Positions 6,272 to 56,310 of a stretch of 64,000 nucleotides of DNA are shown here, one piece after another. The translations under genes were made by a program, and so were the position numbers. How positions within the stretch are numbered: the first letter of the stretch is position 1; each line of letters opens with the position of its first letter. Under the pieces are notes generated by a model. The model saw nothing but the letters and a program-made list of their open reading frames with translations, did not search any database and had not been told where the DNA came from. Location: contig OY821645.1 of NCBI GenBank assembly GCA_963682135.1, positions 512,001 through 576,000 on the forward strand, written 5' to 3'. This stretch comes from Methanothrix sp. (GTDB lineage: Archaea; Halobacteriota; Methanosarcinia; Methanotrichales; Methanotrichaceae).

Positions 6272-6290
6272 TTACTGAGAGGGGCACTTT

Positions 6291-9200: not shown

Positions 9201-9827
9201 GCCAGGATCGAGGCAAGACTGTGGCAGCCCGCTCCTCCCGATCAAAGCTTAATATGGTTTAACGCAAGCCTTAGCACCGCAGAAGAGGTGGCTTATGTTC
9301 CGCCTGCAGCGTGCCCCCAGCTGAAAGATGTCAGAACCGTCCAGGCTGCCATTGATGGTCTGTGCAAAACCCTCTCAGAGAGGACATCCCGGGTCGTGTG
9401 GGTTCACGGCAATAGCCTGCAGGTTGAAAAAATGGCAGGAGAAATTACGGTTGTGCGGGAAAATTATGCAACCGCAGTCAGAATGACAGGCGGCTCTAAG
9501 GCCGGAATGCATTTTTCAATTCCAACCATCCAGTCTCCGGGCGGCATCCCCCCGCTGGCTCAGGGGTCCCTGGTTCGTCTCAGAGCATCATCTGATTCTG
9601 CAGCTGCATTTTCTCTTTCCATTGCCGTATCAATCTATGATGGTGAGATTTCGATATCTGATGGTAATAGAATAGGGATTTCCGGAACATGGGAGACAAA
9701 AGAGATCGACTTTCCCGATAAAGAAATAAAGACCGGGCTAGGTATATCGATATATGCAGAGTGCACCGCAGGAAGCGGCAAGATAGAGCTTAGCGCTGCT
9801 GGATGCAGGATTTTATCAGACTGGTGA
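6291..9827 (+). CDS. DUF6519 protein 1 (putative eCIS tail fibre) with four Ig-like repeats and a distinct C-terminal domain
   Basis: MKGDFTRFTFDP...MQQGRVILDADWNEQ, YRGLENQLYRVEIH, ATFKWSRNNG, GDYWMI; four GDGQEAMPG repeats. Confidence 0.85.
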   Translation: MKGDFTRFTFDPKKHFNRVLMQQGRVILDADWNEQSDIQKHIRETEDSDVIGPSGAPIDFAGFKVEVAPDGRELILSTGRMYVNGILCELDAHILYFESVAFPSEKLVKLLTQNIEDMGFEKGQWIEISVKSDEQIAPQVLKVVEINAAESILTLNDNVNGNLSTQAASSGIFIKIFSKIEAEHELDTDASETFLAHLDVWERHITSVEDDGIREKALDGPDTTTRAKTEWRVKLLPCELEKKSCREAALKLKNLTEKNVSRLAVRLQPSQGEFFEDPCAALLQAAYRGLENQLYRVEIHKPGETGKATFKWSRNNGAIAFAILDFIAEEAANSGAKTDPNVYKKVKLQQLGWDEELRIHKDDWVEVLGDETEILGKPGTLARVEDIDETDLILTLTVDVARHLEESNPKVRLWDIDASEGISTVGTSEEDCWIELENGIEVCFKAGDYYQTGDYWMIAARSTGDIEWPYDEKDFVPKFGIQHHNCLLAILTRNQDRMWKFEKDCRKLFPNLTDMVFFSYAGGDGQEAMPGKELPSSLQVGVHRGGSPIVGAEVKFEIAKGQGELRLSDNTFSYQKDCTITTGEDGIAECFWKFGEDQPKADPIWTEMVKATLLSPEQEHPPSILFNASASAASLSYVEGDGQEAMPGEELPAPLLARVFVGGYPLKNAEVEFEILKGQGELRSSESAFSGLRNLKVTAGEDGIARCFWKIGTDQPEGALIWTEQVEARLINPKQEHSPSMFFNANVIALALSYAGGDGQEAMPGKGLPAPFRVRVSRGERPVEGAEVVFEILEGQGVLNPAGSVPTGKDGIAQCACQLADGVGSMHLQVRAALINIVCPDKTGALSHPSIIFNANASIAEEVACVPPTECSQLKDVRTVQGAINRLCQQVSFSCIGGDGQEAMPGLELASPLQVRVARGSYPVNGASVKFKIESENGLLRDSKGVTGYELSVLTDENGIAACFCILYKSARIEARLWQPAPPDQSLIWFNASLSTAEEVAYVPPAACPQLKDVRTVQAAIDGLCKTLSERTSRVVWVHGNSLQVEKMAGEITVVRENYATAVRMTGGSKAGMHFSIPTIQSPGGIPPLAQGSLVRLRASSDSAAAFSLSIAVSIYDGEISISDGNRIGISGTWETKEIDFPDKEIKTGLGISIYAECTAGSGKIELSAAGCRILSDW

Positions 9828-9860
9828 GCTTCTAGAATGCGATGAAATTGAGGAAGTCTT

Positions 9861-12800: not shown

Positions 12801-13973
12801 CCCAAAGGAATTTTTAATGACGGACCGGGCAGGTTATTCAACTCGAAGGTCTATATCTGGAATGCCGATAAGAGCAGATCCGAGGCTTATTCTTTTAACC
12901 GCCAGGAAGACTCCATTGTCATGCCCTTCAAGCGGGCTGCGGTTCCTTATGTCATGATATATAAGGAGAGCACAGCCGCTTTTGAGATACATCGCTGGGT
13001 GCAAAAGACGGGGGGAAAGCTGGATCTAGAGATCCTGGCAACAGGGACGATGCCGATCTCTCTGAAGAGCAATCTTACCATTCCTTTTTATCAGGTAACT
13101 GATCTCTATTTCGCTTCTTACGACACGACTACCGGCTTAGCCGTTTTATGTAAAGGATTGGCGGGCGGCACTCCTAAAAATCCAATAGTGACCATTACCC
13201 CGGGAAAGTCCTTCACCTGGCAGAAGGATTCAAATGTGATCGTATTTGAGGCCAATAACCTGCTTCATTTCGTGGTTTACAACCCTAAATCAGGGGCAGT
13301 ACTCTTATCCCGCGGTAAGTCGGAGAAAGAAGGCTATTCTCTGGAGACTGTGTGGACTGGAACCTGGGAACCATCCGATGCTTTGATGGTATTTGATCTG
13401 GGCGGAAAGCCTCACTATTTGGCCAGTATGCAGGAGAAGCGGCTGATTCAGTTAAGCCGCTGGAAGCTGGAAGACGGAACTAATGAATTGATCTGGTCGA
13501 GCGGTTGGGAGGCAGGATATGTCCTTTATAGAGTGCTGCTCTCCGGCCAGTCTCTTGTTCTGGCCTACAAGCCGGGCGACGGGAAGGTGGAGCTGTGCAG
13601 CTGGGATGCAGGTGGTGTGAGGGTGAGCATCTGGGTCAATAGCTGGGAAAAAGGCTACAGCAGGCTGGTCTTCTTTGAGATTGGAGGCCAGCCGGTCTTC
13701 CTGGGCTACCGGCCTGAGGACGGACAGGCAACGCTCTGTAGCTGGGATCCGGCCAAGGGAACTCATGAGGTTGTTTGGAGTGACGAGTGGGGGCAAAATT
13801 ATGCTCCTATGGCCTTCGAGCTGGAGGGCAGCGCTTATCTATTGGTCTACAGGGCGGCGGACGGGCGGGCTGCTCTCTACCGCTGGAACCCTGACGGCAG
13901 CCGGGTGGCGGTCTGGCAGGAAGAGTGGGGGCAGGGATACACGCTGATGCCTTTTTCGCTTTCTGAGGATTAG
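9861..13973 (+). CDS. DUF6519 protein 2 (putative eCIS tail fibre) with beta-helix-like middle and Trp-rich propeller-like C-terminus
   Basis: Same DUF6519 motifs (QQGRIQLDADWNEQ, GNQLYRVEIH, FKWSRDNGS, GDYWLIPAR), ICLLPGEH, then about 12 repeats of 45-55 aa. Confidence 0.85.
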   Translation: MKGDFTRFTFDPTKHYSSVRMQQGRIQLDADWNEQAEIQLYHSYITNHDVIGLCGAPKHNPGFAIGVSSGELTIGKGRYYVGGILCENEQDISYLAQPDIIPEKVESDGRYLAYLEVWQRHLTAVEDEDIKEVALGGTDTATRTKTVWQVKLRRLETLSANPGDDCPCPTVTRIAGLAVRTDPLGPEDPCILQQGAGYHGLGNQLYRVEIHQQGRTGVATFKWSRDNGSIVRAVEKVDGNSITLQDCAQGIQDIFLPGKLIEISDELRDLRGAPGVLAAVQSVQGNVLVVAESKRISGKDFPSSGKPKVRLWDNQIKNKLANNDGSLKTGADWIGLETGIMVRFDPNGDYRCGDYWLIPARRATGLIQWPHSENEFVPRLGIIRHRCSLAVLQKSGESWSALKDCRRVFPPLTEIEVTGGSGSCSVTVGKGGEYSDLSAAIGDLIGKHKNDSLKTICICLLPGEHIVKNLTVDTPTKTPQFNLHIRGCASSTLLVSSGQMKIIGLASVSFENMLIKTIECNDEALHASGAIFLEGTESIAVRSCRVEGEGIPLLRIGPTARHIVISNSFLLPTDVSERLALVIHQVTEDATLTHNWIRGKLSLGPTGVHIGTWPDLSRQEMSLAGDLMRRGLLKLGGMSSGTLRMQGNRLTRVLAGDIIIEEIKELLKTDEVTKEGPGRPSRPLQKVIKSWFFRQVLFSENIIEEENVALQGNNQVIGESVSINSNWLSPARGDDTTGKKLLGWSMADSAFYAGNSGLEDVQICDLSRISSKAGNTIDIMKCRPAAHYLAYRSRGGRAQSYRWHNDRVRANIITEKWEENCDLLSALLGGKPHFLLRGPTADGKAPFALYGIKSKAVREMIWSESWEYDPSYAITPLDIGGQMNFVSYRSTDGDVQLWRRNSQGGKDIIGYGWGVGYEIVPFSFNSEPHFVAYKSENGSAEIYHWTSDGKRETVRSEKWKETCKLVPFELEGKSYLLMYGPKGIFNDGPGRLFNSKVYIWNADKSRSEAYSFNRQEDSIVMPFKRAAVPYVMIYKESTAAFEIHRWVQKTGGKLDLEILATGTMPISLKSNLTIPFYQVTDLYFASYDTTTGLAVLCKGLAGGTPKNPIVTITPGKSFTWQKDSNVIVFEANNLLHFVVYNPKSGAVLLSRGKSEKEGYSLETVWTGTWEPSDALMVFDLGGKPHYLASMQEKRLIQLSRWKLEDGTNELIWSSGWEAGYVLYRVLLSGQSLVLAYKPGDGKVELCSWDAGGVRVSIWVNSWEKGYSRLVFFEIGGQPVFLGYRPEDGQATLCSWDPAKGTHEVVWSDEWGQNYAPMAFELEGSAYLLVYRAADGRAALYRWNPDGSRVAVWQEEWGQGYTLMPFSLSED

Positions 13974-13987
13974 GGGGAGAAGCAATT

Positions 13988-16138
13988 ATGATGACTAGAT
14001 TGAGGAAACCTGCACAGGAATCTGGAAGGTTCGTTGTGCCGCAGCATAGTCATTTCGCATCGCGCCACTTTGCTCAGAGAGCTGAGGAGCACGAGGCCCC
14101 GGCTGCGAAGTCACCTGTCCCCTTCAGCCTTGCCGATATCGACATCTTCCCACGGGAGACCGTGCAGCCAAAGCTGTGGCTGGGGCCGGTCGGGGATCGA
14201 TACGAGGAGGAGGCGGACCAGATGGCCGGCCGGGTGGTCCAGATTATCTCATCTCCTGATCCAGGTCCTGTGCAGAGGCAGGAAGACCTGAAAGACGAGG
14301 ATGAACTGGATCTGGAAGAGGACGGAGCGCTACAGCGAAAAGTCGCAGGACCCGCTCCATCAACCAGGGTCGCAGATCTCGGGCCCGAATTTGATTCTTC
14401 CATTCAACGGGCGCGGCTAGGCGGAAAAACCCTTCCGGATAGCGTCCGCCTGCCGATGGAGCGGGCTTTTGGCGCCGACTTTGGCGGCGTGAGAATCCAC
14501 GCCGATGAAGTAGCAAACAGGCTCAATCGATCGATCCAGGCGCGAGCCTTCACGACGGGGCAGGACGTCTTCCTCAGGCAAGGCGAGTACCGCCCCGGAA
14601 GCTTTGAGGGACAGAGGCTGCTGGCACACGAGCTGACGCATGTAGTGCAGCAAAATGGTAGTAAGATGCAGAAGGAAAATGTAATTCAGCGATATATGCT
14701 TTACAATCCGGGGGCGGGGGCAGGACAGTATCAGACCAACGGAGGTGCCGACTTTACTAGCCAGATCACGGGAGGGGCTGGTAATTCGTTTATTGATCCT
14801 GGTACCCAATTGCCTCGTTTGCAGAATCAGGTAAATCCACCAGCAGTGCGCGTCTCTCAAAATGGCCACCTCGCTATCGAGGACGCTCAACTAACCAATA
14901 GGCAACCCAAGTTCTTCTATGCCAACGTCGCTATGGTGCCTGCATGGAACGATACCTTGCAGTCTCAGGGATCATTCTACCGGCTGGTCGTGGTTGGCGG
15001 GCCAATCCTTACCTTTGTTATGCCTGGAGGCGATGCCCGGCATCTAGCCAAAATCGAGGCGCGAAATCTGGAGCGGGGCAATCAAGGGCTGGGTATGACC
15101 ACAGCCCAGCGATGTGACGAGATGGTGCGAGAGGTACTGGGCACAATAGGTACAGAACCGAAGGCTTTGTTCAATAATGCGCCCATGCAACTCCCTGAAG
15201 CAAATCAGGTGACACAAGAAATCATCCGGCACTACTACGTGGCTGCCGAGCTTGCTTACGAAGCAGCCGGTGGGGGAGGGGCTGGCGCAGGCGGTGCGTG
15301 GGGCGTCGGCGGAATGCCAGTTAACGGAGTGGACTTCTCAAATAGCGATCCTGTGTTTAATGCTGTGGCAGCAAACTACGGCAACGAGATGAATTTGCAT
15401 CTGGGCGCAGTACCCAACGCTGCGCTGGCCGCACGAATGCAATTTCTTGGGGTGAATGAGTACGCAGCTCCCGAGGTAGGCCAGGGACTTGTTACGCACA
15501 AACTGGGAAAAGAGACTGCTGCACCGGGAGCAGGGGGAGGAACACAACTGATTGATGCATACAACAACCGCGTCGTACCAAATCCGAACAACAACACAAT
15601 GTGGGGATTTCATTGGGCAGGAGTGATTGCCAAAGACGGAACAGATTATATAACCATAGAGAACTACGCACGCAATGCAGAAGACAATCACTTACCCCTG
15701 TCCCCTGCTGATCCACGGTTTTACTTCCAGATGTATGGGGCTGATGCCCAATCCTGGCACGCCCAATGGTCGGCTATCGGACGCGGGGGACGAGAGTTTG
15801 TCAACCCGGTTAGCATGGTGGTCGCGGCAGAAGAAACGCCAGAGGTTTACGAAGAGCGAGCGATGCGAAACTTTGGGAACAACATCTATGCCATCCGATA
15901 TGATTACAACACTTTGGCCGTCGTGGGGGCGACGGACGACCAGTTAAGGATCGGACTGTTAAAAGGTTTGGCGTATGCAAAATACATTCTCGACAACAAT
16001 GTTTGGGGAAATCAGGGAACGGTTAATGCGTGGGTGACAGCTGTGACCAATGTTGCTAACCCAGCGGTCACAGCACTGCGCGACCATGTACTGGCCCGAC
16101 TCGGCCAAATCTGGAGAATCCCAATTGTTGGTCTGTAG
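13988..16138 (+). CDS. DUF4157 (eCIS core domain) effector with C-terminal putative toxin domain
   Basis: QPKLWLGPVGDRYEEEADQMA, QR motifs, MERAFGADFGGVRIH...ARAFTTGQDVF...LLAHELTHVVQQ (HExxH), VIQR, then about 480 aa of unrelated sequence. Confidence 0.88.
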   Translation: MMTRLRKPAQESGRFVVPQHSHFASRHFAQRAEEHEAPAAKSPVPFSLADIDIFPRETVQPKLWLGPVGDRYEEEADQMAGRVVQIISSPDPGPVQRQEDLKDEDELDLEEDGALQRKVAGPAPSTRVADLGPEFDSSIQRARLGGKTLPDSVRLPMERAFGADFGGVRIHADEVANRLNRSIQARAFTTGQDVFLRQGEYRPGSFEGQRLLAHELTHVVQQNGSKMQKENVIQRYMLYNPGAGAGQYQTNGGADFTSQITGGAGNSFIDPGTQLPRLQNQVNPPAVRVSQNGHLAIEDAQLTNRQPKFFYANVAMVPAWNDTLQSQGSFYRLVVVGGPILTFVMPGGDARHLAKIEARNLERGNQGLGMTTAQRCDEMVREVLGTIGTEPKALFNNAPMQLPEANQVTQEIIRHYYVAAELAYEAAGGGGAGAGGAWGVGGMPVNGVDFSNSDPVFNAVAANYGNEMNLHLGAVPNAALAARMQFLGVNEYAAPEVGQGLVTHKLGKETAAPGAGGGTQLIDAYNNRVVPNPNNNTMWGFHWAGVIAKDGTDYITIENYARNAEDNHLPLSPADPRFYFQMYGADAQSWHAQWSAIGRGGREFVNPVSMVVAAEETPEVYEERAMRNFGNNIYAIRYDYNTLAVVGATDDQLRIGLLKGLAYAKYILDNNVWGNQGTVNAWVTAVTNVANPAVTALRDHVLARLGQIWRIPIVGL

Positions 16139-39085: not shown

Positions 39086-39916
39086 ATGCTATCTGCAAAG
39101 GAGATGAATAAGATGCAAATAAGAAAATGGTTCGGAGCGTCTCTGCTTTTAATATTTTTGGCTGCACTTGCACTTATCCCATGGTTGGCATGCGCTCAGA
39201 CTTCATGCCCTGAGGGATGCAGCTGCATCACTGTGGCCGGCGCAAACCAGCAGTTCGGCGAAGGAAATTTTGATAGGTGTCAGGCAAATCCCTGTGGTGA
39301 AGAGAGGTCACCTACTGGAGCTATGCTTCTTAAGTATTGCTTCAAGTCCAAATGTCCCCAGGGCTGCAGTTGCATGACCGAGGAGAAGGCCAAAGAGATG
39401 GGATACAACCTCTGTTCCGGTCAGAGGATTCCCTGCGGTTATGACCAGTTTAAGAGGCCATTGTATTGCTTCTCGCCCGCCGTCCGGTGTCCGGATGATT
39501 GCCAATGCCTGACGGAAGAGGGGGCCAAGAAGCTGGGGTACGATAAATTCTGCGGGAACGAGAAGAAGGAATGCGGCAAAGATCCTCGCGGATACCCGAA
39601 ATTCTGCTATCAGATTCCCCCCGTCGCCTGTCCTACGGGGTGTGTCTGCGCCAGCAAAGAGGAAGCCGCAGCAAAAGGACTCAAGGACAACTGTCTGGAT
39701 GCCAATGGCAAACCAATTGTCTGCGGCACAATAGACGTCCAGGCAGGATTATTCAGGTACTGCTTTAGGGCGCCGGAGCCGCTCCGGTGCTGGTACGACT
39801 ACTCCTTGGGAAAATGCGTGGGCGGCTGCTCTGACGGAAAGATGTGTCAGTTGAATACTATAAAACGGGATCCCAAGACCATGAAGGTGACATTCGCGGA
39901 GTGCCATTGCAAGTGA
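39086..39916 (+). CDS. Secreted cysteine-rich repeat protein
   Basis: Signal peptide; four CPxxCxC...A...G...C...CG...Y/FCF/Y repeats. Confidence 0.82.
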   Translation: MLSAKEMNKMQIRKWFGASLLLIFLAALALIPWLACAQTSCPEGCSCITVAGANQQFGEGNFDRCQANPCGEERSPTGAMLLKYCFKSKCPQGCSCMTEEKAKEMGYNLCSGQRIPCGYDQFKRPLYCFSPAVRCPDDCQCLTEEGAKKLGYDKFCGNEKKECGKDPRGYPKFCYQIPPVACPTGCVCASKEEAAAKGLKDNCLDANGKPIVCGTIDVQAGLFRYCFRAPEPLRCWYDYSLGKCVGGCSDGKMCQLNTIKRDPKTMKVTFAECHCK

Positions 39917-40393: not shown

Positions 40394-40851
40394 TCAGCCC
40401 GGCCCATCGATAAGCCGCAGGTAGCACACCACCGAGACCACCAGCGGCGCAAACCCGGCCAGGAGGGCCCAGTAGGCCCGCTTCAGATTTCTGTGCTTGT
40501 AGCCTACCAGTTCCCGGTAGAACTCTTCGGCAAGCTGCGGCGAGCTCTGGTTCGTCTCGTAATTCTTCGGCGTGAATACCCGCACGGCAAAAAAGAGGCA
40601 GACCAGCCACAGGACGATAGGCAACACAAACAGGCCGATCCGAAGCCAAGCTTCCGGGCCCTGCACGACCATGACCTTGCGCAGGTCGCTAAAGAGATAG
40701 CAGCAAAGTAGATGCCTTCTACCAGGGTCACGGCTGCGATGAGCTGCTTGGCCGCCTCCTCCAGAGAGGCGACTGAATCACGCACCGCGGTGCGGGCAGT
40801 CTCCAGCCAGAATTCGTCCATCTCGGTGACGGGCTAGGCGATACCGTGCAT
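40394..40851 (-). pseudogene. Disrupted copy of the 41386-41862 membrane-protein gene
   Basis: Close DNA similarity ending at the stop codon; 1-bp deletion near 40691, TAG at 40834-40836, 5' end replaced. Confidence 0.9.
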
Positions 40852-40903: not shown

Positions 40904-41068
40904 ATGGCAGGAGCAACAGAGAAAGCCGTCATCCAGGATGTCAATGAGGCCGCCCTACAGGAGTTTGAGGCGGGCCTTGCCCGAAGCATCAAGCAGTACA
41001 AAGCAGGTCAGGTCAAGACATTCAAGACCAAAGAGGAATTCATAAACCATCTCAAGAACCTTGAGTAA
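40904..41068 (+). CDS. Small antitoxin (54 aa, not in ORF track)
   Basis: MAGATEK...LARSIKQYKAGQVKTFKTKEEFINHLKNLE, ending 5 nt before the RelE-like gene. Confidence 0.8.
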   Translation: MAGATEKAVIQDVNEAALQEFEAGLARSIKQYKAGQVKTFKTKEEFINHLKNLE

Positions 41069-41073
41069 GATAC

Positions 41074-41364
41074 ATGGATTACGATTCCACACCAGAGTTC
41101 GATGATCAGTTTTTGAGTCTCACCCGGAAGAATAAAGCTCTTGAAGCAAGACTTCTCAAGAAAATCAACCAGATTTTCCATAATCCTTTCATCGGCGATC
41201 CAAAACGTCACGAATTGAAGCACGCCCGCGGCTCTCATGTGGACCCCTATGTAATCGTCTATGTGGTTAAGGATGACATAATCACATTTCTATATGTAGA
41301 CCACCATGATTTTGTCTATGGCAAAGCTGCAGAAATCATGAAGAAATGGGAAAGTGAGATTTAG
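41074..41364 (+). CDS. RelE/ParE-family toxin
   Basis: TPEFDDQF, KINQIFHNPFIG, ARGSHVDPYVIVY, FLYVDHHD. Confidence 0.85.
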   Translation: MDYDSTPEFDDQFLSLTRKNKALEARLLKKINQIFHNPFIGDPKRHELKHARGSHVDPYVIVYVVKDDIITFLYVDHHDFVYGKAAEIMKKWESEI

Positions 41365-41385: not shown

Positions 41386-41862
41386 TCAGCCCGGCCCATC
41401 GATAAGCCGCAGGTAGCACACCACCGAGACCACCAGCGGCACAAACCCGGCCAGGAGGGCCCAGTAGGCCCGCTTTAGATTTCTGTGCTTGTAACCTACC
41501 AGTTCCCGGTAGAACTCTTCGGCAAGCTGCGGCGAGCTCATGTTCGTATCGTAATTCTTCGGCGTGAATACCCGCACGGCAAAAAAAAGGCAGACCAGCC
41601 AAAGGACGATGGGCAGGACAAACAGGCCGATCCGAAGCCACGCTTCCAGTCCCTGCACCGCTATGACTTTTCGCAGGTCGCTAAAAGAGATGGCAGCAAA
41701 GTAGATGCCTTCTACCAGGGTCACGGCTGCGATGAGCTGCTTGGCCGCTTCTTCTAGAGAGGCGACGGACTCGCGGACGGCGGTGCGGGCCGTATCCAGC
41801 CAGAACTCGTCCAGCTCAGTGACGGGCTCGGCGACAGCGTCCTGGGATTCGATGTCTGCCAT
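41386..41862 (-). CDS. 3-TM membrane protein, putative effector
   Basis: Three hydrophobic segments; SLEEAAKQLI, VFTP, YKHRNLKRA; last gene of the CHAT-STAND operon. Confidence 0.85.
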   Translation of the reverse strand: MADIESQDAVAEPVTELDEFWLDTARTAVRESVASLEEAAKQLIAAVTLVEGIYFAAISFSDLRKVIAVQGLEAWLRIGLFVLPIVLWLVCLFFAVRVFTPKNYDTNMSSPQLAEEFYRELVGYKHRNLKRAYWALLAGFVPLVVSVVCYLRLIDGPG

Positions 41863-41878
41863 GATTTGAAGATCCTCA

Positions 41879-42091
41879 CTAAATGCCCCGTATTACGGTT
41901 TTCTCTTGCACCTTTGTAACATAGAACTTGTTCCTGGTGCCGCAGAACGGGCAGCGCTCAACAAAGGAAACGGCTCCTGGATCTCCTTTCCTGGCCAGCT
42001 TGCCGTCTGATTGCAGGTGTGGCTGCTCATCCCACTGAAATATCCGGTCTGAGGCTGTGCATCTTTCATTGCAGCATAGGATTTTGAGCAT
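41879..42091 (-). CDS. Small Zn-ribbon-like protein (70 aa)
   Basis: CCNERC...CPFCG; about 15-nt spacers to both neighbours. Confidence 0.8.
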   Translation of the reverse strand: MLKILCCNERCTASDRIFQWDEQPHLQSDGKLARKGDPGAVSFVERCPFCGTRNKFYVTKVQEKTVIRGI

Positions 42092-42106
42092 GATCGATCT
42101 CCCATT

Positions 42107-43069
42107 TCATTGAATTTGCTCCAGTCGTTGCCTGACATATCCAGCGAGTTTGGCGTGGGGACTTCCCAGTTCCAGGAAGGCTGCCTCAGCCAGACGAATC
42201 AATCGCAAAGCCTCCTTCACATTTCCGGTCTTCTCTTCTAGAATGGCAAACTGAGCCATGCTGACAGCAATATCATTTTTATCACCAATCTCCTGAGAGA
42301 TTTCTAAGCTCTTTTGGTAGTGCCGCCGAGCTTCATTAAGATCGCCTTTTAAATATGCTAAATTTGCTAATCCGTTCAAGGATTTTGAAATTCCAGCCTT
42401 ATCTTGTAGTTCTTGAGCAATATCAAGACAATCATGAAATAAACTGTAAGCATGATCATAGTCGCCTTTTATTTCAGCCAAATTGCCAAGTTCACCCATT
42501 GTAGCTAATATACCTTTCTTATCTCCGAGTTTCTGCTTTATTTGGAGACTCTGAATGAGAAAGTCGCGAGCTTCATCCCAATTCTCCTCATTCATGGCTA
42601 GCATGCCTAATTGATGCAATGAAGCTGAAATGTTGCCGATGTTGCCAATTTCTTGGGAGATTTCAAGACTATGTCGAAAGAGCTTCTTAGCGTCTTTATA
42701 ATCACCTGTTAAGTATGCCAAAATACCTAATGATCCAAGAGAGCTAGAAATGCCTCTTTTGTCTCCAATCTCCTGGGAAATTAAAAGACTCTGATGATAG
42801 AGTTTGCCAGCTTCATGGTAGTCGTTTGCATCCTGAGCCAAAGTGCCCAGTTGATATAGCGAAGCTGAAATGTTGCTTTTATCACCGATATCTCTGGCAA
42901 TCTCATGGCTTTGCTTGAATAGCTTTTGAGCGTTATTATATTCGCTTTTTTCTTGAGCCAACATTCCTAGACCGCGCAATGAGTCTGATTTGCACACCTT
43001 GTCGTCTAGCCTATTTGCGATCTCAATACATTGATAAAAGAAATTTTGAGCATCATCGTAGTAACCCAT
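42107..43069 (-). CDS. TPR-repeat C-terminal part of the frameshifted CHAT-STAND-TPR gene
   Basis: About 7-8 MalT-like 40-aa TPRs (SL-x-x-LG-x-LA...SLEISQEIGDK); overlaps the upstream ORF by 64 nt in another frame. Confidence 0.88.
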   Translation of the reverse strand: MGYYDDAQNFFYQCIEIANRLDDKVCKSDSLRGLGMLAQEKSEYNNAQKLFKQSHEIARDIGDKSNISASLYQLGTLAQDANDYHEAGKLYHQSLLISQEIGDKRGISSSLGSLGILAYLTGDYKDAKKLFRHSLEISQEIGNIGNISASLHQLGMLAMNEENWDEARDFLIQSLQIKQKLGDKKGILATMGELGNLAEIKGDYDHAYSLFHDCLDIAQELQDKAGISKSLNGLANLAYLKGDLNEARRHYQKSLEISQEIGDKNDIAVSMAQFAILEEKTGNVKEALRLIRLAEAAFLELGSPHAKLAGYVRQRLEQIQ

Positions 43070-45174
43070 TTATATGATACATGCCCAAGTTGATTTAAGC
43101 AAGTCATCTCAACGTTTTTATTATCAAGCACTTTTGCTGCATCCAGTGCCTGATGGAGGCGAAGCCTGTATTCGCTCCAGTAACCTCGATCGTCTAGATA
43201 ATCCTGTAATACACATAAAAATTGAAGTAATTGATGTGAAGCTCTTTTCAGCTCGTCTCCTTTTTCGTGTTGTAACCGGGCAACAGTAACGTCCATGCCA
43301 GCGAGAATGTTCTCACGTTCCCATTCAAGCATGTCGAAATTAACGCTGAAATGCCGGGCATATTCCAGGAAATACTTTGCTGCTCTTGGTTGAAGATTTG
43401 CCAGAAGCTCTTCTCCAGCTTTGCCGGCAGCGTACTGACGCATGAGAGGATGCAAGCGGTAGCGGTAGAGCGTGACCTCCTTCCCTTCCTCATCCAAAGC
43501 CGCGATCTCCCCCCTATCCAAGAAAGAGCTGCGCACCAGTTCTTCAAGATCACTTTCCCAGTTCATCTGCCCTTGCTGGCCGTCCTCCAGGCAGATGCTC
43601 TTGATCGCATTATCGTTCATCGAGCCAAAGAATACAGCTAGACGAGAGAATAGATTCCTTTGGCCCTCTTCCAGGCTATTGTAAGAGACATCAAATCTAT
43701 CTGATACTTCTTTGGGTGGATTTCGTCTCAGCTCGTCCCTGATTCCAGCCAGGTGTCGCCTGGTTGACTGGACTGCCACCAGCTTGATGGCCAGCGGGTG
43801 ACCCTGCATGAAACCAGCGATCTCGGCCAGGCTGCTCTGCTCTTCAGCGCTCAGATGCTCCCCCCATTTTGGAAAACTCCGGCGGGCTTCTCTAAAAAAT
43901 AGCCTGATTGCTTCCTCCTGCTCCATCTCCGGCACCCGGATCTCCCGGCCACCGCAGGGCAGGCTCTCGCGCGTTGTCAGCAGGGCCGCGCTGGGCTGGG
44001 GGATGCCCTCCAAGAAGCGCCAAAGTCCGGGATCCTTTATGCTCTCGGCGTTGTCCACCACCAGCAGGCTGGCAGTATCGTAATTCCTGAGATAATTCAA
44101 GACCGTGTCCCTTTTTTTATCCAGGGGGTGCATGCGAAATTCCAGGCCAAAGACGTTATCAAAAGCGTTGAGCATCTCCTCTTGGCCCAGGCGCTCCATC
44201 TCGGCGGCGCTCCTCCAGAAGACGCCTCCCGGATAGCGCCAGGCCAGCCTTCTTGCCGCCTCAGCAGCCAATACCGTCTTGCCGATGCCTCCCTGGCCGG
44301 TGAGGACGACCAGCTTCTCTCCAGACTGCAAGGCGTCCATGGCCTGCGAGAGCAACCCTTTGCGCCCTCCTGGCGGATCGCCCCGGAGATAGTCGCCCAC
44401 GAATTCGTGCTCCGGAAGGCCAAAAAGTTTCTCTGCCTCAAAACTGGCCCTGCCCGTGGCTCCGGCGGCCAGAATTACGGCATCCTTTCCCGGGCCCTCC
44501 AGAACAGGGATCTTCTGCAGCTCGCCTCCGTTCTCCAGCCTCTTCAGAGCAGGCAGGGCATTCTTGAAGGCCTGGGCGATGGTCATGCCCGCCCCCAGGC
44601 TCGCGTAAAAGGGCCCGGCCAGAGCCATGGTCGACTTTAGCGAAACGGATTCCTTCATCCCCAGGACGACAGGAACGCCTTTGGCCAGCAGGACGTTCTG
44701 CAGGCTTGCCTCGCCTCCTTTGGCCGATTCACAGGCGCTCAGGAAGACCAGCTTAGCAGGCTGCGGCGCGCTTGTCACAATCTTTGCCAGCTCCTCCGCC
44801 GGCTGAGCGTCCAGCTTGCCGTCCTCCTGCTCGAAGGCGAAGTAGCCCTTCACCTCTTCGTCTTCCAACAAAGCTGTGCATCGGTCGCATTTCTTCTCCT
44901 GCGGCAAGTGAAGAGCGCCGCAATTGGGGCAGCGCCGCCCCAGGGCTGCGTGGCCGTCGAAGTGCACGATCTCGTAGCCGCTCAAAATCTCCTCTCGCAG
45001 CCCTTCCACCGTGGGCGGGCGGAGCATCTTCAGGAAGACCGGCGCCTGCACCCGTCGCAGGCCGCCCTGCAAGGCCCACTGGTCGGCTAAGTTGGGCAGG
45101 TCAGGTAGATTCAGGGGCCGGGAGAGGATCACCAGAATGCGAAAGCCTTTGGGGGAGGAGGCATCTTGCGGCAT
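43006..45174 (-). CDS. CHAT (caspase-like) protease plus STAND/NB-ARC NTPase, N-terminal part
   Basis: VHFDGHA and FLSACES dyad; GQGGIGKT, LLVVDNAE, TTR, GHPLAI, YRLHPLMRQYA. Confidence 0.9.
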   Translation of the reverse strand: MPQDASSPKGFRILVILSRPLNLPDLPNLADQWALQGGLRRVQAPVFLKMLRPPTVEGLREEILSGYEIVHFDGHAALGRRCPNCGALHLPQEKKCDRCTALLEDEEVKGYFAFEQEDGKLDAQPAEELAKIVTSAPQPAKLVFLSACESAKGGEASLQNVLLAKGVPVVLGMKESVSLKSTMALAGPFYASLGAGMTIAQAFKNALPALKRLENGGELQKIPVLEGPGKDAVILAAGATGRASFEAEKLFGLPEHEFVGDYLRGDPPGGRKGLLSQAMDALQSGEKLVVLTGQGGIGKTVLAAEAARRLAWRYPGGVFWRSAAEMERLGQEEMLNAFDNVFGLEFRMHPLDKKRDTVLNYLRNYDTASLLVVDNAESIKDPGLWRFLEGIPQPSAALLTTRESLPCGGREIRVPEMEQEEAIRLFFREARRSFPKWGEHLSAEEQSSLAEIAGFMQGHPLAIKLVAVQSTRRHLAGIRDELRRNPPKEVSDRFDVSYNSLEEGQRNLFSRLAVFFGSMNDNAIKSICLEDGQQGQMNWESDLEELVRSSFLDRGEIAALDEEGKEVTLYRYRLHPLMRQYAAGKAGEELLANLQPRAAKYFLEYARHFSVNFDMLEWERENILAGMDVTVARLQHEKGDELKRASHQLLQFLCVLQDYLDDRGYWSEYRLRLHQALDAAKVLDNKNVEMTCLNQLGHVSYKWVTTMMLKISFINVLRSQIG

Positions 45175-46147: not shown

Positions 46148-46354
46148 ATGTCAGAACTGGAAGAAGTAATTAAAGAGCTACCTCCTGATCTCCATCAAGA
46201 GGTTGCTGATTTCGCTAAGTTCCTGATGGAGAAAAGAGGCAGAAAACCAAAAGGCTGCCTGAAGCTGGATTGGAGAGGTGCTTTGCAAGATATGAAGGAT
46301 CAGTACACATCGGTCGAGCTTCAGCACAAGATCCAGGAATGGAGAGGAGACTGA
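46148..46354 (+). CDS. DUF2281-like antitoxin
   Basis: LPPDLHQEVADFAKFL, LDWRGAL, YTSVELQH; TGATG overlap with the PIN gene. Confidence 0.85.
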   Translation: MSELEEVIKELPPDLHQEVADFAKFLMEKRGRKPKGCLKLDWRGALQDMKDQYTSVELQHKIQEWRGD

Positions 46355-46764
46355 TGTATCTCCTGGATACAAATATTTTCCTGGAGCTACTGCTTAATCA
46401 GGAAAAAGCAGATGAAGTACAACGGCTCCTTCTTGAAACCCCTCCTGAAATGCTCTGCATATCGGAATTCTCTTTGGATTCAATGGGTGTTGCATTGGTG
46501 CGTCGCAACATGCATGATATTTTCTTAAAAGCTGTGGAGGATATGCTTTTAGTGGGAGGTATTCGTCTACTGAGGCTAAGCCCGGAAGATATGCAAAGGA
46601 TTATTCAAGCCTCAAGACGATTCAAGCTTGATTATGATGATGCTTATCAATATGCACTGGCGGAGAAATATAACCTTATCATGGTAAGTCTTGATAGCGA
46701 TTTTGATAGAACAAAAAGAGGAAAGCAAACACCTGCCGAAATATTAAAATCAAGCAATAAGTGA
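46354..46764 (+). CDS. VapC/PIN-domain toxin
   Basis: MYLLDTNIFLE, LDYDDAYQY, VSLDSDFD. Confidence 0.9.
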   Translation: MYLLDTNIFLELLLNQEKADEVQRLLLETPPEMLCISEFSLDSMGVALVRRNMHDIFLKAVEDMLLVGGIRLLRLSPEDMQRIIQASRRFKLDYDDAYQYALAEKYNLIMVSLDSDFDRTKRGKQTPAEILKSSNK

Positions 46765-50368: not shown

Positions 50369-51955
50369 ATGAGGCAGATATACCCGATTATTATTCTATT
50401 CCTGCTGATTGCCGCCAGCTCTGCCCAGCTGGAAGCAGACAAGGAAAGATTTGATGTTGTGCTCCATTCCGGTGACTTGGAGGAGAGAACGCTTAAGGTA
50501 ACCAATATAGGAGATGCGACGATCTTCAAGATATCAAAAACCGAGATGAGTGGAACTGCCAGAGATTACATATTCCTGGGCATGCCGGAAGAACAACCAC
50601 TTAAGCCTCAGGATAAGGCAGAAATTAAGATATACTTTGCCTTACCACCGGAGACGCGACCCGGATCCTACACAGGATTTCTGTATTTGCTGGATAGCGC
50701 CCCTCCCTCGCTTCCCATGAGAATTGACTTTAACCTGACAGTCATCGGACAGGAGAGCTACGGCATAAGCATGACCATAGATGATGCCAAGTCTGCCCAG
50801 CTATCTGCCAATGCTAACGACATAGCTCAGTTCGATCTGGCTGTCAAGAATTTGGGCGTTTTTAGAGATGTAGCCTCAATCGATGCCGGAACGCTCCCTG
50901 ACGGGTGGAGTGTGACCTTGCTCGATGGAGAAAAAACGCAAAGTCTTCCCTATGATGTGCCTCTAGACCCGGGCATAACCCATACCATGAAGCTTCAGGT
51001 GCAAACATCATTGCCTGGCAAGAAAGCCAGCTTGGCAATCCTAGCCAAATCGTTAGGCAACCAGTCCAAGAATTCTTCTGTTGAGGCGGAGGTTGATTTT
51101 GCCGCGGAAGTTAGGGGATATAACGTGGATATCAAGGTTCCGGAAAAGATTGTAACCAACAAAACCTACAAGGGCTCCTTCAATATCATGCTGGATGTTA
51201 AGGAAAAGGTGATGGTTGGGATAGTAACGCCTCCTGAGCTTATGGTTATACCTTTAGCTCAAACGGTAGAGGTCACACCACTAAATCCCGGAATCGCCAA
51301 TTTCACCATGCTGGCATCAAAGAGCGGCGACTATCCGCTAGTCTTCCGTCTCATGGACTCCCAGGGCATTCCCATGCCGGAAGAGGTAGCATCCATCAAG
51401 GTGATCCTGCCGCAGGGTATGGTCATTCTTACGGGGGATGACTTCCTCTACAGCACTATCGCATCAGTATCCACTATGGGCAATGGAACAGCCGATTTCG
51501 ACCTAATAACAATACCTCCTGGAAAGATAAGCGAAACAGATCAGGAGAAGCTGCAAGACTATTCCAGGGTCTTGATATTGGGCAATCAATCCATCGTCAC
51601 TAAAGATGCGGAAACGTCATTGAAGGGTGTGGAAATCAAGCGTATTGACACAGGCAGCCTTTACGAAGAATGCTGGCTGTTTGCCGCAGAGGTTTGGCGG
51701 AATGGAACGGCCGAGGTGGTCTTATCCAGTCCTCTGCCCGCTGATATCTTCAGGGCCTATGAGATGGCCAGGGTGGCGGGAGCGCCAATAATAGTATGCG
51801 AGGGCGATGTGACTGAGAAGGTCAATACTGTGATCGCGGAAATGACAAAACGAAATATTACCCTCTCCAAGGCGCTTCTCATAGGCGAGATTGGAGCGGA
51901 ATATGCAAAGCCGCTGCAAAGTGCAGGCATCAAAACCGAAGAGGTGAAAGCGTGA
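50369..51955 (+). CDS. Secreted Ig/NEW3-like multidomain surface protein
   Basis: Signal peptide; VTNIG, PGSYTG, VKNLG..LPDGW beta-sandwich motifs. Confidence 0.78.
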   Translation: MRQIYPIIILFLLIAASSAQLEADKERFDVVLHSGDLEERTLKVTNIGDATIFKISKTEMSGTARDYIFLGMPEEQPLKPQDKAEIKIYFALPPETRPGSYTGFLYLLDSAPPSLPMRIDFNLTVIGQESYGISMTIDDAKSAQLSANANDIAQFDLAVKNLGVFRDVASIDAGTLPDGWSVTLLDGEKTQSLPYDVPLDPGITHTMKLQVQTSLPGKKASLAILAKSLGNQSKNSSVEAEVDFAAEVRGYNVDIKVPEKIVTNKTYKGSFNIMLDVKEKVMVGIVTPPELMVIPLAQTVEVTPLNPGIANFTMLASKSGDYPLVFRLMDSQGIPMPEEVASIKVILPQGMVILTGDDFLYSTIASVSTMGNGTADFDLITIPPGKISETDQEKLQDYSRVLILGNQSIVTKDAETSLKGVEIKRIDTGSLYEECWLFAAEVWRNGTAEVVLSSPLPADIFRAYEMARVAGAPIIVCEGDVTEKVNTVIAEMTKRNITLSKALLIGEIGAEYAKPLQSAGIKTEEVKA

Positions 51956-54900
51956 GGCTGCAATATCTAATACTATTCATAGCAATCATGTCCATTTCAG
52001 GGCTATGCTTCGCAGAGGACACGCCCTTGGAAAGAGGTGTTAAGGGCGACCTGGTGGATGTGGTTATGGTTGGAGCAGACGATTGGCATGCAGCCATTGC
52101 AGCTACTCCTCTGGCCATCTGGTCTGAGGAGAATCAGACTCGAGCTTTGCCCATGTTGATTCTTCCCAAAGCGGTCCAGGCTGGTGACCGAAATGGCTGG
52201 GTAGAAGAGAACGATCTTCAGAAATATGGTGTATCCGCTATCCTTAGCACATTCAAAGCGGCAAATATCAGCGCCATAACTATCCATGCACCAGCTGGAG
52301 ATCTAGTTAAATCTCTGGTTGATGCCGCTCACAAAGACGGGCTGAAAGCTTATATTACAGCAACTCTTGAGGTTCCCGTTATCGCCGAGCCGCTGGCGGC
52401 AGAAGATATCAAAGAATTGCCCCAGGCCAGGAAAGCCATGCTTGCACAAGCCGGCCTAGACCTTGCCGTGTCGGACGATTCAAAAATCGACAAAAGTTTG
52501 CTGCAAGTGGCAAATCCCGATATAGGTGGCAATGCCACACTTTACTGTCCGGCAAACCCAGAGACAAAGGAAAATCTCTACAGTCTTATTGAAACGCTCA
52601 TTGACGACTACAAGGCTGACGGCATTGTCCTCTATAATTTCGGCTTCCAGGATGAGAATTATTGCTACTGCAATATCTGCAAGGAGAAGTTCTATCAGGA
52701 TACTGGAATTGACCTGAGTAAAGCCAATATCAATAGCTACAACCAGGAGAGATGGACGCAGTGGAAGCAGGATCAGCTCATAGAGATTGTAAATTATGCC
52801 CGGAATATAACCAATGATTTAGGTCCCGTAAAGCTTGGCGCGGCTTTTGATAATCCTGCCGATCGCAGCCGCGGCTACAACTTCGCCGAGATCTCAAAGA
52901 TAACGGACTTTTCCATAATATCTCCCCTTTCCGCTCAGGATGCGGGACAGGTTTGCCTTCTCAGCAAGAAGCCGGTTTATGTCCGTTTGAGTGACGATTA
53001 CCTTGGATATGTTCTCTCCACACTGAATGTGGAGGGTGCAGTTGAGTATATCGAGGACCTCGTAAAATCCGGCTCAGCAGGTGTTGCTTTCGAGTATAAC
53101 GTCGTTCATACACCAATCTGGTCGGAATTGCAGCCCGCATCAAAGGCTTCTCAGTGGCTGCTGGGTCAATTGGGCGGAAAGACTCTCGCCATTGGAAACG
53201 TCTCCTGGAAATGCGATGCGAGAATAGCCGCAAACAGCAGCTTTGAGATGGCGGAAAAGATAAGCCGGTTTTGGAAAAGCTCGCCGGGAGCCGTAATCGT
53301 AGGCGAAAATTACAGCGCGGCTCTAACCGCGACACCAATTGCCTCTTATCTAAATTGGCCACTGCTCTTTGTGAACAGTATGCTGCCCAATGAGACTGCG
53401 GCTGCATTATCACGTCTGGATGTAAAAGAAGCGATCATCGTAGGTCCAATCTCGCCAATTGTGAGACAGAACCTGAGCCAGATGAATATCACTCTGCTGG
53501 ATGGAAGCCCGGAATTTCTCACCCAGCAGATGCTCAAAAGGGGAGATCATCCGAATATGGTTGTCTTTACCAACTCTCATGATCTCTCGCTTCTACCACC
53601 CGTGCCAAATCCTGTGGTAAAGAGAACACTTGTTAACGATCTGCTGATAAGAACCGAAATGAGCCCAAGCCAGGTACCGGCCGAGGAGCTGGGCGAGATT
53701 GTGAGACTCAACATAACCATGAGCAATACCGGCAAAGAAATGCTGAAAGATGTGCGATTGCTGGACGTCTTCCCCATGGGTCGGTTCATAAAATGGCCGC
53801 GGCCGCAAATAGGTGAAGCAAATATTACCGATCCCTATAGCGGCAAGCCCTCGGATGCCATAAATTCATTCCTCAATGGGTCCATGCTTCGCTGGAATAT
53901 GAACCGGCTTGATCCAGGAAAGTCTGCCAGCCTCAATGTAGAAGTAGAACTGCTCTACCCCATGGATTCCGGTTGGAAAGAGAGGCTGGACACAGGGGCT
54001 ACAGCCGCATACGAGGGATTTTCCTACAACCATACAATTCAGAATCTGGATGACGGGCCTGTAATCAACCTGACCTATCCTACCTGGATCTACTCGGGCA
54101 GAACGAACATCAGCTGGAACCTCGACCGGGAAGCGAGTTACACTGCCCTGAACCTCTACAGCCCGGAAAAACGAACCGGAAGCATCAGGATCGCAGAGAT
54201 CAAGCCTGATAAACTCTATGAAGTGAGAGTGCAGATGCTAACTCCAGGCAAGTGGATCTTCAATATCGAGGCAGGCAATGGTTTTGTCCATACTACGAAG
54301 AACTACACCATCGATGTTCGCTCCAATATTGAGGCTCTGAATATTACTGCATTCAGCCACACCAAAGTCCCCCGGCTATCACTGGTTGCAGCAGCGGCAG
54401 CCGCAGCACGCCAGGCAATTTTGCTGGATGTGGCCAAGGATCCGCAGCAAATTGATCCTCTGATTGAGGAGCAAGCATTGAGGCAGAAGGTTGAGGATCT
54501 CATGCTTTCACCTCGCTATCTGATGGTCGTGGGCGACCCTGGGTCGCTGCCCTTCATGTCCACCGGCCAAATTCAGAGGCTATCAGAGGTCATGGAGTAC
54601 GAGGTCTACAGGGACTATCAATTGCCCATGAATGATGAGAATTACAGCAGCGTAGCCGTAGGCCGAATCATGGGGCTTTCCGTTTACGATGCGTCTCAGC
54701 TTCTGGCTCGCACCCTGGCCTATGATCGATTGAACGGATCCTGGAAGAATAATGCCCTGGTCATATCTTCGCCGCCCCTCTCTTACCCTCAGGCTCCTAT
54801 CGCCATGAGAATCAGAGACTATTTGGCAGAGGCAGGGCTGCAAGTCAAGGACCTGCGTTACGAGGAAGCCACCTACCAGCAAGTCATATCGCAGATGAAT

Positions 54901-56310
54901 AACGGCAAGAACATTGTGCATTTTGATCATCACGGCAATGAAAACGCATGGCAGTTGTCTGATTGGTCGCTGATGGATTCTGCGCTTACGCAGGCGCATG
55001 TGAAGGAGTTGACTCTTTCACCCCAGACGACCACCTCCAGTGCCTGTGTTACTGCAAACCTCAAGGGATACTATCTCAATGTAACCGGCACCAGGATGTA
55101 CATCCCAATTAACCTGGAGGATTCCATTGCCCTGGCCTTCATAAGAGCTGGATCTGTAAATTATATTGGTGAGTCAGCTCTATCCTGGATCTTCGTTTCG
55201 GATGACTTCCTAAAGAGTCTCTATCAATCTCTGGTCTTTGAGAATGCTACCGTTGGTGAGGCAGCTCTTGAAGCAGATAACCTCTACCGATTGAAGTTTC
55301 AGGGTGCAGGGAACATCAAGGAGATCTCCGATTACGATGAGGCCTTGCCGGAATGGGATACCTCAGTCTCCGAGATGCTCAATCAGACGGCCTACATGGC
55401 CGTCATGCTGGGAGACCCCAGCTTCCGGCCAACTCTGCCCAAGACACCAATTCGTCCCTACAGCACCGTGCTGCAAACCGCCAACACCACAGGCGAGAAC
55501 AAGAGCATAATCAAGGCATCCGTAACGCCAATAAACGAGAGCGCAACCGACTGGATCTACTGGATCGAGACAGATAGCACCAGCGGCAAGCTCAATCTAA
55601 ACGCACCGCCTGCCATCATCGGTGAGGTATTGCTGCCTAAAGATGCAGACAAGATCGTCGTTAAGGAAAACGGACTTTCTGTGTGGCATGACGAATATAC
55701 ATTTGGCGAAAACAAAAAGGTGATGTGGCCCATATTGCGACCCAGGCTTGCTGAGGAGAGGGGCTTTGAGATAGAGTATGTGATCATTCCCGGCCAGGTT
55801 CAGCGCATCAATATAACCGCAGGCTGGAATGCCATCGCCGTATACCTCAAGCCGAAAGATGCAACTGCCTCCAAGTACCTGGCGAATAAGCCCTATCGGA
55901 GCATATTCTCCATCGCCGGCGAGGGGTGGGATTTTGGCATGAAGGATGGGAGCATGATCAATGTGACTCGTTTTTCACCCGGTGAAGGCTATCTCATCGA
56001 CAGCGCCAACAACTTCACCATGGAAATATCCGGCAAACCGGTCGATCTGCCTTATCGCATTAATTTGCATGCCGGATGGAATATGATTGGTCTTCCCGTG
56101 AACAATACGGTAGATTTAGGCAACATAACCGTGAATGCCGAGCATAAGAGGTACAAGTATCAGGAAGCAGTGACGAAAGGCCTGGTCTCGGCTTTCGTCT
56201 GGAAGTATGAGAAGCAGGGTTGGACCCACCTGGGCGAGAATGAGACTCTGGTCCCGGGAATGGCCTATCTATTCGAGGCAATGAACGAGGCCAAGCTGGA
56301 GTTCCGCTGA
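51952..56310 (+). CDS. Large secreted protein with GH-like TIM segment and C25 (gingipain-like) peptidase domain
   Basis: Signal peptide; ADGI...YCYCNICKEKF; LMVVGD...LP, VAVGRI, HFDHHG, SACVTA, MLGDPS. Confidence 0.78.
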   Translation: MRLQYLILFIAIMSISGLCFAEDTPLERGVKGDLVDVVMVGADDWHAAIAATPLAIWSEENQTRALPMLILPKAVQAGDRNGWVEENDLQKYGVSAILSTFKAANISAITIHAPAGDLVKSLVDAAHKDGLKAYITATLEVPVIAEPLAAEDIKELPQARKAMLAQAGLDLAVSDDSKIDKSLLQVANPDIGGNATLYCPANPETKENLYSLIETLIDDYKADGIVLYNFGFQDENYCYCNICKEKFYQDTGIDLSKANINSYNQERWTQWKQDQLIEIVNYARNITNDLGPVKLGAAFDNPADRSRGYNFAEISKITDFSIISPLSAQDAGQVCLLSKKPVYVRLSDDYLGYVLSTLNVEGAVEYIEDLVKSGSAGVAFEYNVVHTPIWSELQPASKASQWLLGQLGGKTLAIGNVSWKCDARIAANSSFEMAEKISRFWKSSPGAVIVGENYSAALTATPIASYLNWPLLFVNSMLPNETAAALSRLDVKEAIIVGPISPIVRQNLSQMNITLLDGSPEFLTQQMLKRGDHPNMVVFTNSHDLSLLPPVPNPVVKRTLVNDLLIRTEMSPSQVPAEELGEIVRLNITMSNTGKEMLKDVRLLDVFPMGRFIKWPRPQIGEANITDPYSGKPSDAINSFLNGSMLRWNMNRLDPGKSASLNVEVELLYPMDSGWKERLDTGATAAYEGFSYNHTIQNLDDGPVINLTYPTWIYSGRTNISWNLDREASYTALNLYSPEKRTGSIRIAEIKPDKLYEVRVQMLTPGKWIFNIEAGNGFVHTTKNYTIDVRSNIEALNITAFSHTKVPRLSLVAAAAAAARQAILLDVAKDPQQIDPLIEEQALRQKVEDLMLSPRYLMVVGDPGSLPFMSTGQIQRLSEVMEYEVYRDYQLPMNDENYSSVAVGRIMGLSVYDASQLLARTLAYDRLNGSWKNNALVISSPPLSYPQAPIAMRIRDYLAEAGLQVKDLRYEEATYQQVISQMNNGKNIVHFDHHGNENAWQLSDWSLMDSALTQAHVKELTLSPQTTTSSACVTANLKGYYLNVTGTRMYIPINLEDSIALAFIRAGSVNYIGESALSWIFVSDDFLKSLYQSLVFENATVGEAALEADNLYRLKFQGAGNIKEISDYDEALPEWDTSVSEMLNQTAYMAVMLGDPSFRPTLPKTPIRPYSTVLQTANTTGENKSIIKASVTPINESATDWIYWIETDSTSGKLNLNAPPAIIGEVLLPKDADKIVVKENGLSVWHDEYTFGENKKVMWPILRPRLAEERGFEIEYVIIPGQVQRINITAGWNAIAVYLKPKDATASKYLANKPYRSIFSIAGEGWDFGMKDGSMINVTRFSPGEGYLIDSANNFTMEISGKPVDLPYRINLHAGWNMIGLPVNNTVDLGNITVNAEHKRYKYQEAVTKGLVSAFVWKYEKQGWTHLGENETLVPGMAYLFEAMNEAKLEFR

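Follow-up and report, generated by a model that had tools for sequence, protein, structure and literature searches.

A compact operon on the minus strand of a 64,000-nt stretch of Methanothrix sp. DNA (assembly GCA_963682135.1, contig OY821645.1, positions 512,001 to 576,000 of the forward strand; hereafter the window) encodes a large CHAT-STAND-TPR protein, a small four-cysteine zinc-ribbon protein (ZnR) and a three-helix membrane protein (TM). The large protein combines an N-terminal caspase-like CHAT protease, an NB-ARC-type NTPase and a TPR array. The trio recurs as a unit in archaea and bacteria. By profile comparison TM is a remote homologue of PycTM, the membrane effector of Pycsar systems, and no named system appears to match the trio in PADLOC, Pfam, NCBIfam or the literature surveyed (the defining papers of CATRA/CATASP lie outside that survey), in line with the first-pass annotation, an earlier reading of the bare sequence by which no system of this composition could be named. 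The operon may represent a horizontally mobile NLR/Avs-like abortive-infection module, with ZnR as the link by which the protease licenses a membrane effector of the PycTM type; judged by the protein families, natural gene fusions and the precedent of protease-licensed pore formers, the chances of this are about even.

In such a module the large protein would sense a trigger by its TPR array and, as its family suggests, oligomerise through the NB-ARC NTPase; oligomerisation would activate the N-terminal CHAT protease by proximity. The protease would then act on the ZnR/TM pair; ZnR, as the gene fusions suggest, would be a putative adaptor or latch between TM and the protein that bears the protease. 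By homology to the Pycsar effector, the released or rearranged TM would damage the membrane, and the infected cell would be stopped or killed. A broader proposal is put forward tentatively, at somewhat short of even chances: PycTM-class effectors may have been rewired from cyclic-nucleotide to proteolytic control, a dedicated ZnR adaptor linking the three-helix effector to clan-CD proteases (CHAT-STAND-TPR, AAA-CHAT and clostripain-like) in a module common to methanogenic and methanotrophic archaea and their bacterial neighbours.

Components of the trio and their conservation

The large gene is present in the window as two open reading frames (ORFs) of 722 and 320 amino acids (aa), pieces of one broken gene that were searched separately, unjoined. 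Pfam placed CHAT at residues 49-207 (E 1.3e-19) and NB-ARC at residues 279-472 (E 1.2e-6; 28.5 bits, cut-off 23.5) of the 722-aa ORF, with weaker matches to NACHT and nSTAND3; the 320-aa ORF was matched by TPR_12 (3.1e-48), TPR_10 (9.3e-29) and TPR_MalT (2.2e-15). The catalytic His lies in HFDGH (H75), the Cys in LSACES (C148), and the Walker A motif is GQGGIGKT. The CHAT domain with intact His and Cys, the NB-ARC-type NTPase and the TPRs of the first-pass annotation were thus all recovered. A P-loop NTPase with Walker A motif, and an N-terminal effector domain and C-terminal repeats in one gene, were found, as in STAND proteins.

Conservation within the genus was surveyed in 59 Methanothrix genomes with queries from this locus. 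TM matches were obtained in 33 genomes and ZnR matches in 15; in all 15 ZnR lay upstream of a TM match, within ~130 nt in 14 genomes and with an insertion sequence (IS) element between the two in one. In 10 genomes the same contig also carried, upstream, a close homologue of the large gene. Close relatives usually have the order radical-SAM gene, CHAT-STAND-TPR gene, ZnR, TM and phosphate-binding protein gene. A second subfamily in the genus (L033, L036, L037 and L038) has the same gene order, with overlapping stops and starts, a large protein of ~25% identity, a TM of ~39% identity and a 63-66-aa CxxC...CxxC protein between them. Genomes with two operons keep the cognate sets together (for example on contigs 53 and 74 of G059), and decayed copies were found in G065, G066, G011, G068, G010 and G013. 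An empty-site test was carried out on five genomes without a close operon: the flanking radical-SAM and phosphate-binding genes were never adjacent (the distance was 167 kb in G005 and 22 kb in G022, and in the other test genomes they lay on different contigs), and no clean empty site was found. TM remnants were located ~1 kb from the phosphate-binding gene in G015 and G074.

A wider survey, in which the TM alignment was searched against one genome per species, gave 51 loci in Methanotrichaceae, Methanosarcinaceae, Methanoperedens, anaerobic methanotrophic archaea (ANME-1 and ANME-2), Chloroflexota, Acidobacteriota, Nitrospirota and Omnitrophota. A locus was considered assessable if the DNA ahead of its TM gene extended for 2.8 kb or more (39/51). 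CHAT ORFs were detected with a hidden Markov model trained on 13 CHAT domains confirmed by Pfam (12 came from these loci and are among the positives), and stood beside the ZnR-TM pair in 33 of the 39 assessable loci; in one more locus (L094) a clostripain-family Peptidase_C11 protease was found instead of CHAT. Nine upstream proteins from bacteria and archaea were analysed with Pfam: all contained CHAT and TPR, and all except that of L086 contained NB-ARC/NACHT at E<=1e-5. Other arrangements were a CHAT-AAA_16 and a TPR protein as two ORFs (L092) and an AAA_16 protein with CHAT at its C-terminus, encoded by a divergently transcribed gene (L088). The catalytic His was conserved in 34/34 family members and the Cys in 33/34. 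The gene-neighbourhood search suggested by the first-pass annotation thus placed the trio far outside the genome at hand, with occurrences in two archaeal lineages and in five or more bacterial ones. A chance neighbourhood was rejected because the identical gene order recurs in three co-varying subtypes across phyla.

Within the CHAT domain, a zinc-ribbon-like CxxC...CxxC insert of ~30 residues was observed between the His and the Cys (44878-44931, minus strand; residues 82-99 of the 722-aa ORF). It is present in Methanotrichaceae members of subfamily 1 and absent from bacterial members and other subfamilies.

The TM tree consists of two main clades; its backbone has little resolution and is not taken to show in which direction transfer went. 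Chloroflexota sequences and a Pyrinomonadaceae sequence form a supported group (97/92) among Methanotrichaceae groups, and an Omnitrophota sequence is placed among archaeal ones. TM proteins of Anaerolineae/Chloroflexota (L061, L063 and L066) are ~55% identical to that of Methanothrix. The grouping of the Chloroflexota proteins among those of Methanotrichaceae, together with this identity, suggests that TM genes moved between archaea and bacteria (Chloroflexota/Acidobacteriota).

The first-pass annotation had described TM as a 158-aa protein with three membrane segments, which was borne out by hydropathy (residues 42-61, 71-102 and 131-156) and by an AlphaFold2 model with helices at 16-60, 72-97 and 111-154 (predicted local distance difference test score, pLDDT, 92.8), in which only ~15 N-terminal residues are disordered. 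A profile search of 1.84 billion cluster representatives yielded 678 relatives with E<=1e-3, of which 303 reached E<=1e-10; standalone proteins of ~150 aa make up most of the 150 that were listed. As a single sequence the 158-aa protein had no Pfam match, and the PADLOC PycTM model matched it weakly (E 1.5e-4). The most recurrent Pfam match in the family, always below threshold, was PF18967 (PycTM), which we take to be the former DUF5706. For a direct comparison, six true PycTM proteins, all over the cut-off, were collected from 301 Acidobacteriota genomes and aligned. Against this alignment the TM alignment gave an hhalign probability of 95.2% (E 2.7e-8, 120 columns), and the match takes in the conserved K...L..A...GF stretch ahead of the last helix. 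The resemblance to PycTM/DUF5706 pointed out in the first-pass annotation is therefore real but remote. A fold search with the TM model against the PDB gave nothing at E<=0.001, the top rows being unrelated helical bundles.

All four Cys of ZnR are invariant across 38 aligned sequences, which fall into three subtypes that track the subtypes of TM and of the large protein. Pfam matches were to generic zinc-ribbon models only (Zn_ribbon_4 in 18/38 members), and a ZnR profile search of PDB sequences returned ribosomal and other generic zinc ribbons only, with no Csx30 or Csx31 chain. The AlphaFold2 model is a beta-rich ribbon (pLDDT 83.6) with the C-terminal tail (residues 61-70) predicted to be disordered. 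Complex prediction for TM with ZnR gave a score of 0.09 (mark 0.32). Two fusions were found. The third-subtype ZnR of L094 forms the C-terminus of the Peptidase_C11 protease, with the TM gene directly after; and a search for longer proteins yielded P0294, a CHAT-NB-ARC-TPR protein of 1183 aa that ends in a second-subtype ZnR and is one sequence from one short contig, in which a frame error is possible. That ZnR is joined to a protein with a protease domain in two contexts speaks for a joint function of ZnR and protease.

The locus and its surroundings

The features of the operon are compiled in Table 1. All four ORFs lie head to tail in the order sensor pieces, ZnR, TM, with 15 nt from the TPR stop to the ZnR start and 16 nt from the ZnR stop to the TM start; the compact operon with ~15-nt spacers and the 70-aa Cys-motif protein ending in VIRGI, as given in the first-pass annotation, were both found. 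Its description of the operon as a TA-rich islet holds for 42000-43500, the TPR part (GC content 0.41-0.44), but not for the CHAT/NTPase part (0.56-0.62) or the ZnR/TM part (0.56).

Table 1. Features of the CHAT-STAND-TPR/ZnR/TM operon, with positions in the window
Feature	Position	Strand	Content or evidence
5' piece of sensor/protease gene, 722 aa	43006-45174	-	CHAT (His75/Cys148), NB-ARC (Walker A 291-298), start of TPR array
Frameshift site, 1 nt, within A run	43069-43071	-	splits CHAT-NB-ARC-TPR gene
3' piece of sensor/protease gene, TPR array, 320 aa	42107-43069	-	Pfam TPR_12
ZnR, four-Cys zinc ribbon, 70 aa, C-terminus VIRGI	41879-42091	-	Zn_ribbon-type Pfam matches
TM, three-helix membrane protein, 158 aa, presumed effector	41386-41862	-	hydropathy, AlphaFold2, hhalign
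Second TM gene copy, degenerate	40397-40848	-	genome self-search with TM

Relatives carry the large gene as a single open frame of 946-1214 aa. Residue 702 of the 722-aa ORF joins in frame to residue 1 of the 320-aa ORF (for example at 6254/6255 of L026), and relatives align to residues 1-702 only, the final 20 codons of the 722-aa ORF being out of frame; the frameshift was placed from this continuous frame across both pieces. The source genome is a single 3.04-Mb contig. Contigs from runs X1, X3 and X4 (two studies; the runs may include the source sample) span the site with 0 differences. This agreement indicates that the frameshift is in the DNA, and sequencing error was rejected as its cause. 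With a frameshifted sensor/protease gene and a degenerate second TM copy, the operon of this genome is probably inactive.

Residues 58-158 of the second TM copy are 92% identical to TM, and residues 8-62 are in another frame with a TAG; its matches in the genome itself are G000:C1:552397-552699 and 552684-552848. Adjoining this copy is a 276-aa ORF (39086-39916, plus strand) with no Pfam or PHROG match. The same ORF is located between a full and a partial TM copy in the relative G016 (L042), which suggests that part of the TM gene was duplicated by an insertion.

Neighbouring genes in the window encode ParE, a phosphate-binding protein, a flavodoxin-like protein, a PIN-domain protein and radical SAM enzymes. 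Two toxin-antitoxin-like cassettes, both on the plus strand and both missing from this position in the mapped close relatives, flank the operon: one at 40904-41364, in which a 54-aa ORF comes before a ParE-family toxin gene (41074-41364), the other at 46148-46764, in which a 68-aa ORF comes before the PIN-domain protein gene (46270-46764). Among 2.9 million viral contigs (IMG/VR), the trio was found on one (L101, 1-9237), where, within ~130 nt, there follows a large-terminase fragment of 196 aa from the C-terminus, and after it portal, head maturation protease, scaffold and major head genes; the cassette appears to occupy the place expected for the terminase N-terminus. The bacterial TM among archaeal ones, the decayed copies, the ParE and PIN neighbours and the viral-contig trio suggest a mobility and decay typical of defence genes.

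Further along the window, two very large DUF6519 proteins (1178 and 1370 aa) and a 716-aa protein with an eCIS_core domain are encoded at 6291-16138 (plus strand), with two large ORFs without Pfam match ahead of them (45-6271); the region 45-16138 may be part of a contractile-injection-like locus. A 1452-aa protein encoded at 51952-56310 (plus strand) contains a Peptidase_C25 domain (gingipain family, clan CD) and, as a weak match, a cell-wall-binding repeat.

Weighing of the explanations

Pepco and EACC1 are protease-licensed pore formers (PMC12642450, Evans et al. preprint) and provide a precedent for licensing of TM by the CHAT protease. Several observations count against it. The large gene is frameshifted in the genome at hand. 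A conserved cleavage motif was not recognised, and the short disordered N-terminus of the TM model would leave little room for an autoinhibitory propeptide. Five of the 39 assessable loci (L061, L063, L083, L089 and L093) carry ZnR-TM without a clan-CD protease nearby, so the pair can at least persist alone, and it may also work without a protease. A Methanosarcinaceae locus (L090, 3711-7748) has a Tyr in place of the catalytic Cys (SSYES compared with SACES), and no ZnR ORF was found between its CHAT homologue and the TM gene. The kinship of TM to PycTM is distant as well: the PF18967 cut-off was passed by 0/18 TM members (7/18 matched, best E 0.03) and by 0/123 (E<=0.01 in only 5/123, best E 3e-4), and a search of the genome with the PF18967 model gave nothing at the locus. 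Of the interpretation as an undescribed defence operon offered by the first-pass annotation, the co-occurring unit, the conserved catalytic dyad, the PycTM homology and the lack of a named match were upheld.

The main rival, which is considered unlikely, assigns the two roles the other way round: ZnR-TM would serve as membrane anchor or sensor and alert the STAND protein to an event at the membrane or to entry, and the effector would be the CHAT protease, by degrading cellular or viral proteins. Caspase-like proteases are terminal effectors elsewhere, for example in type IV Thoeris (PMC13069673), and a sensor role was proposed by Kaur et al. for the membrane protein EACC1 (PMC7159879); EACC1 was, however, later shown to be a cleaved pore former and not a sensor (PMC12642450). 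The position of ZnR in P0294, fused at the C-terminal sensor end of the large protein, and a TM without obvious propeptide would suit an anchor or sensor, but a sensor is already supplied by the TPR array and TM is homologous to the effector family PycTM. It is distinctly unlikely that the trio belongs to an already described system, for example to the ternary CATRA system, which depends on a caspase and includes CATASP, or to one of the numbered Avs families together with accessory genes. CATASP, the 'CATRA-associated small protein' or 'caspase associated regulator component', is one of ten protease-linked modules in PMC12642450, PMC8195603 speaks of a 'caspase-dependent CATRA ternary conflict system', and at least 90 defence STAND families have been catalogued (PMC13581612). 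Yet ZnR and TM match no dedicated Pfam, NCBIfam or PADLOC family, ZnR being recognised by generic zinc-ribbon models only and finding no Csx30/Csx31 chain in the PDB; in the literature searched, PycTM and CHAT were mentioned together only in an unrelated context and DUF5706 was not found.

A role outside antiviral defence was also considered and is given little probability: the trio could serve regulated cell death or kin conflict in anaerobes that form filaments or aggregates, or act as a membrane switch triggered by stress. Its hosts are Methanothrix, Anaerolineae/Chloroflexia, ANME, Methanosarcina and Methanoperedens, which are mostly filamentous or aggregate-forming. Just one locus was found among the IMG/VR viral contigs, and caspase/STAND conflict systems were tied to a multicellular habit by Kaur et al. 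(PMC7159879). Patchy distribution, decay and inter-domain transfer, on the other hand, fit defence genes, and toxin-antitoxin genes flank the locus; the mechanism would be identical in either case, and both roles are compatible.

Relation to known systems

Protease-licensed death effectors are an emerging common logic of prokaryotic immunity, and their known partners (gasdermins, Pepco, EACC1 and hydrolases) are mostly bacterial. If licensing of TM by the CHAT protease is correct, the trio would contribute an effector pair of a new kind, in which a helical membrane protein of the PycTM type goes with a zinc-ribbon adaptor. It would also provide one effector family driven either by cyclic nucleotides or by a protease, and a protease-gated helical membrane effector in archaea. 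The cassette is found chiefly in Methanothrix, ANME, Methanoperedens and Methanosarcina. Little work has been done on antiviral defence in these organisms, which are central to the methane cycle. The natural fusions and the three co-varying subtypes offer a direct experimental handle.

PADLOC gave no system-level match for the four locus proteins; besides the PycTM match given above, weak matches were to mad8 (0.005), SAVED_CHAT (0.017) and a generic TPR model. NCBIfam gave nothing above any cut-off for the locus proteins, and a literature search for Methanothrix, CHAT and NLR returned unrelated papers only. Compared by name only, none of the ten protease-linked modules listed in PMC12642450 is PycTM-like or a zinc ribbon; CATASP among them is a small caspase-associated protein, with which ZnR could conceivably be identical.

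The Avs/NLR-like STAND systems with a licensed partner (Pepco, EACC1 or MBL; PMC12642450) resemble the trio in the STAND NTPase, the TPR-type C-terminal sensor and the N-terminal protease, in a small neighbouring gene for a candidate membrane-active partner and in exchange among lineages. They differ in that the partner here is a helical three-segment PycTM-like protein with a separate ZnR, encoded downstream of the protease gene, in that the trio is mainly archaeal, and in that cleavage is here a proposal. In the two-gene EACC1-caspase system (Kaur et al. 2020, PMC7159879) a small membrane protein is likewise paired with a caspase-superfamily protein with variable sensor regions, but EACC1 has a single conserved membrane helix and is encoded 5' of the caspase, whereas TM has three helices, is encoded 3' of the protease and is accompanied by ZnR; no Pfam match to the EACC1 family was found among the locus proteins. 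Type III-E Craspase (Csx29 TPR-CHAT with Csx30/Csx31) shares a CHAT protease with TPRs and small neighbouring proteins; the large protein here has in addition an NTPase domain, its CHAT is N-terminal to the TPRs, and ZnR has no match to Csx30/Csx31 PDB chains. Bacterial gasdermin systems likewise encode a clan-CD protease beside a membrane-permeabilising protein, here a putative one, but TM is all-helical in its model (three long helices), has no gasdermin match in Pfam or PADLOC and no evident C-terminal inhibitory peptide, and the trio contains the extra ZnR gene.

PMC13069673 describes a Pycsar operon linked with type IV Thoeris, in which neither system activates the other. In the window no cyclase gene is located beside TM, the partners of which are the protease/STAND protein and ZnR in place of the pyrimidine cyclase of Pycsar. 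The loop from the second membrane segment to the last helix is ~30 residues shorter in the TM family than in PycTM, and TM scores below the Pfam gathering threshold. The two are nevertheless alike in size and in layout, with an N-terminal cytosolic helix that runs into the first membrane segment, a second segment, a cytosolic loop and an amphipathic helix that runs into the third, and they share the conserved K-x-x-x-L-x-x-A ... GF motif ahead of it.

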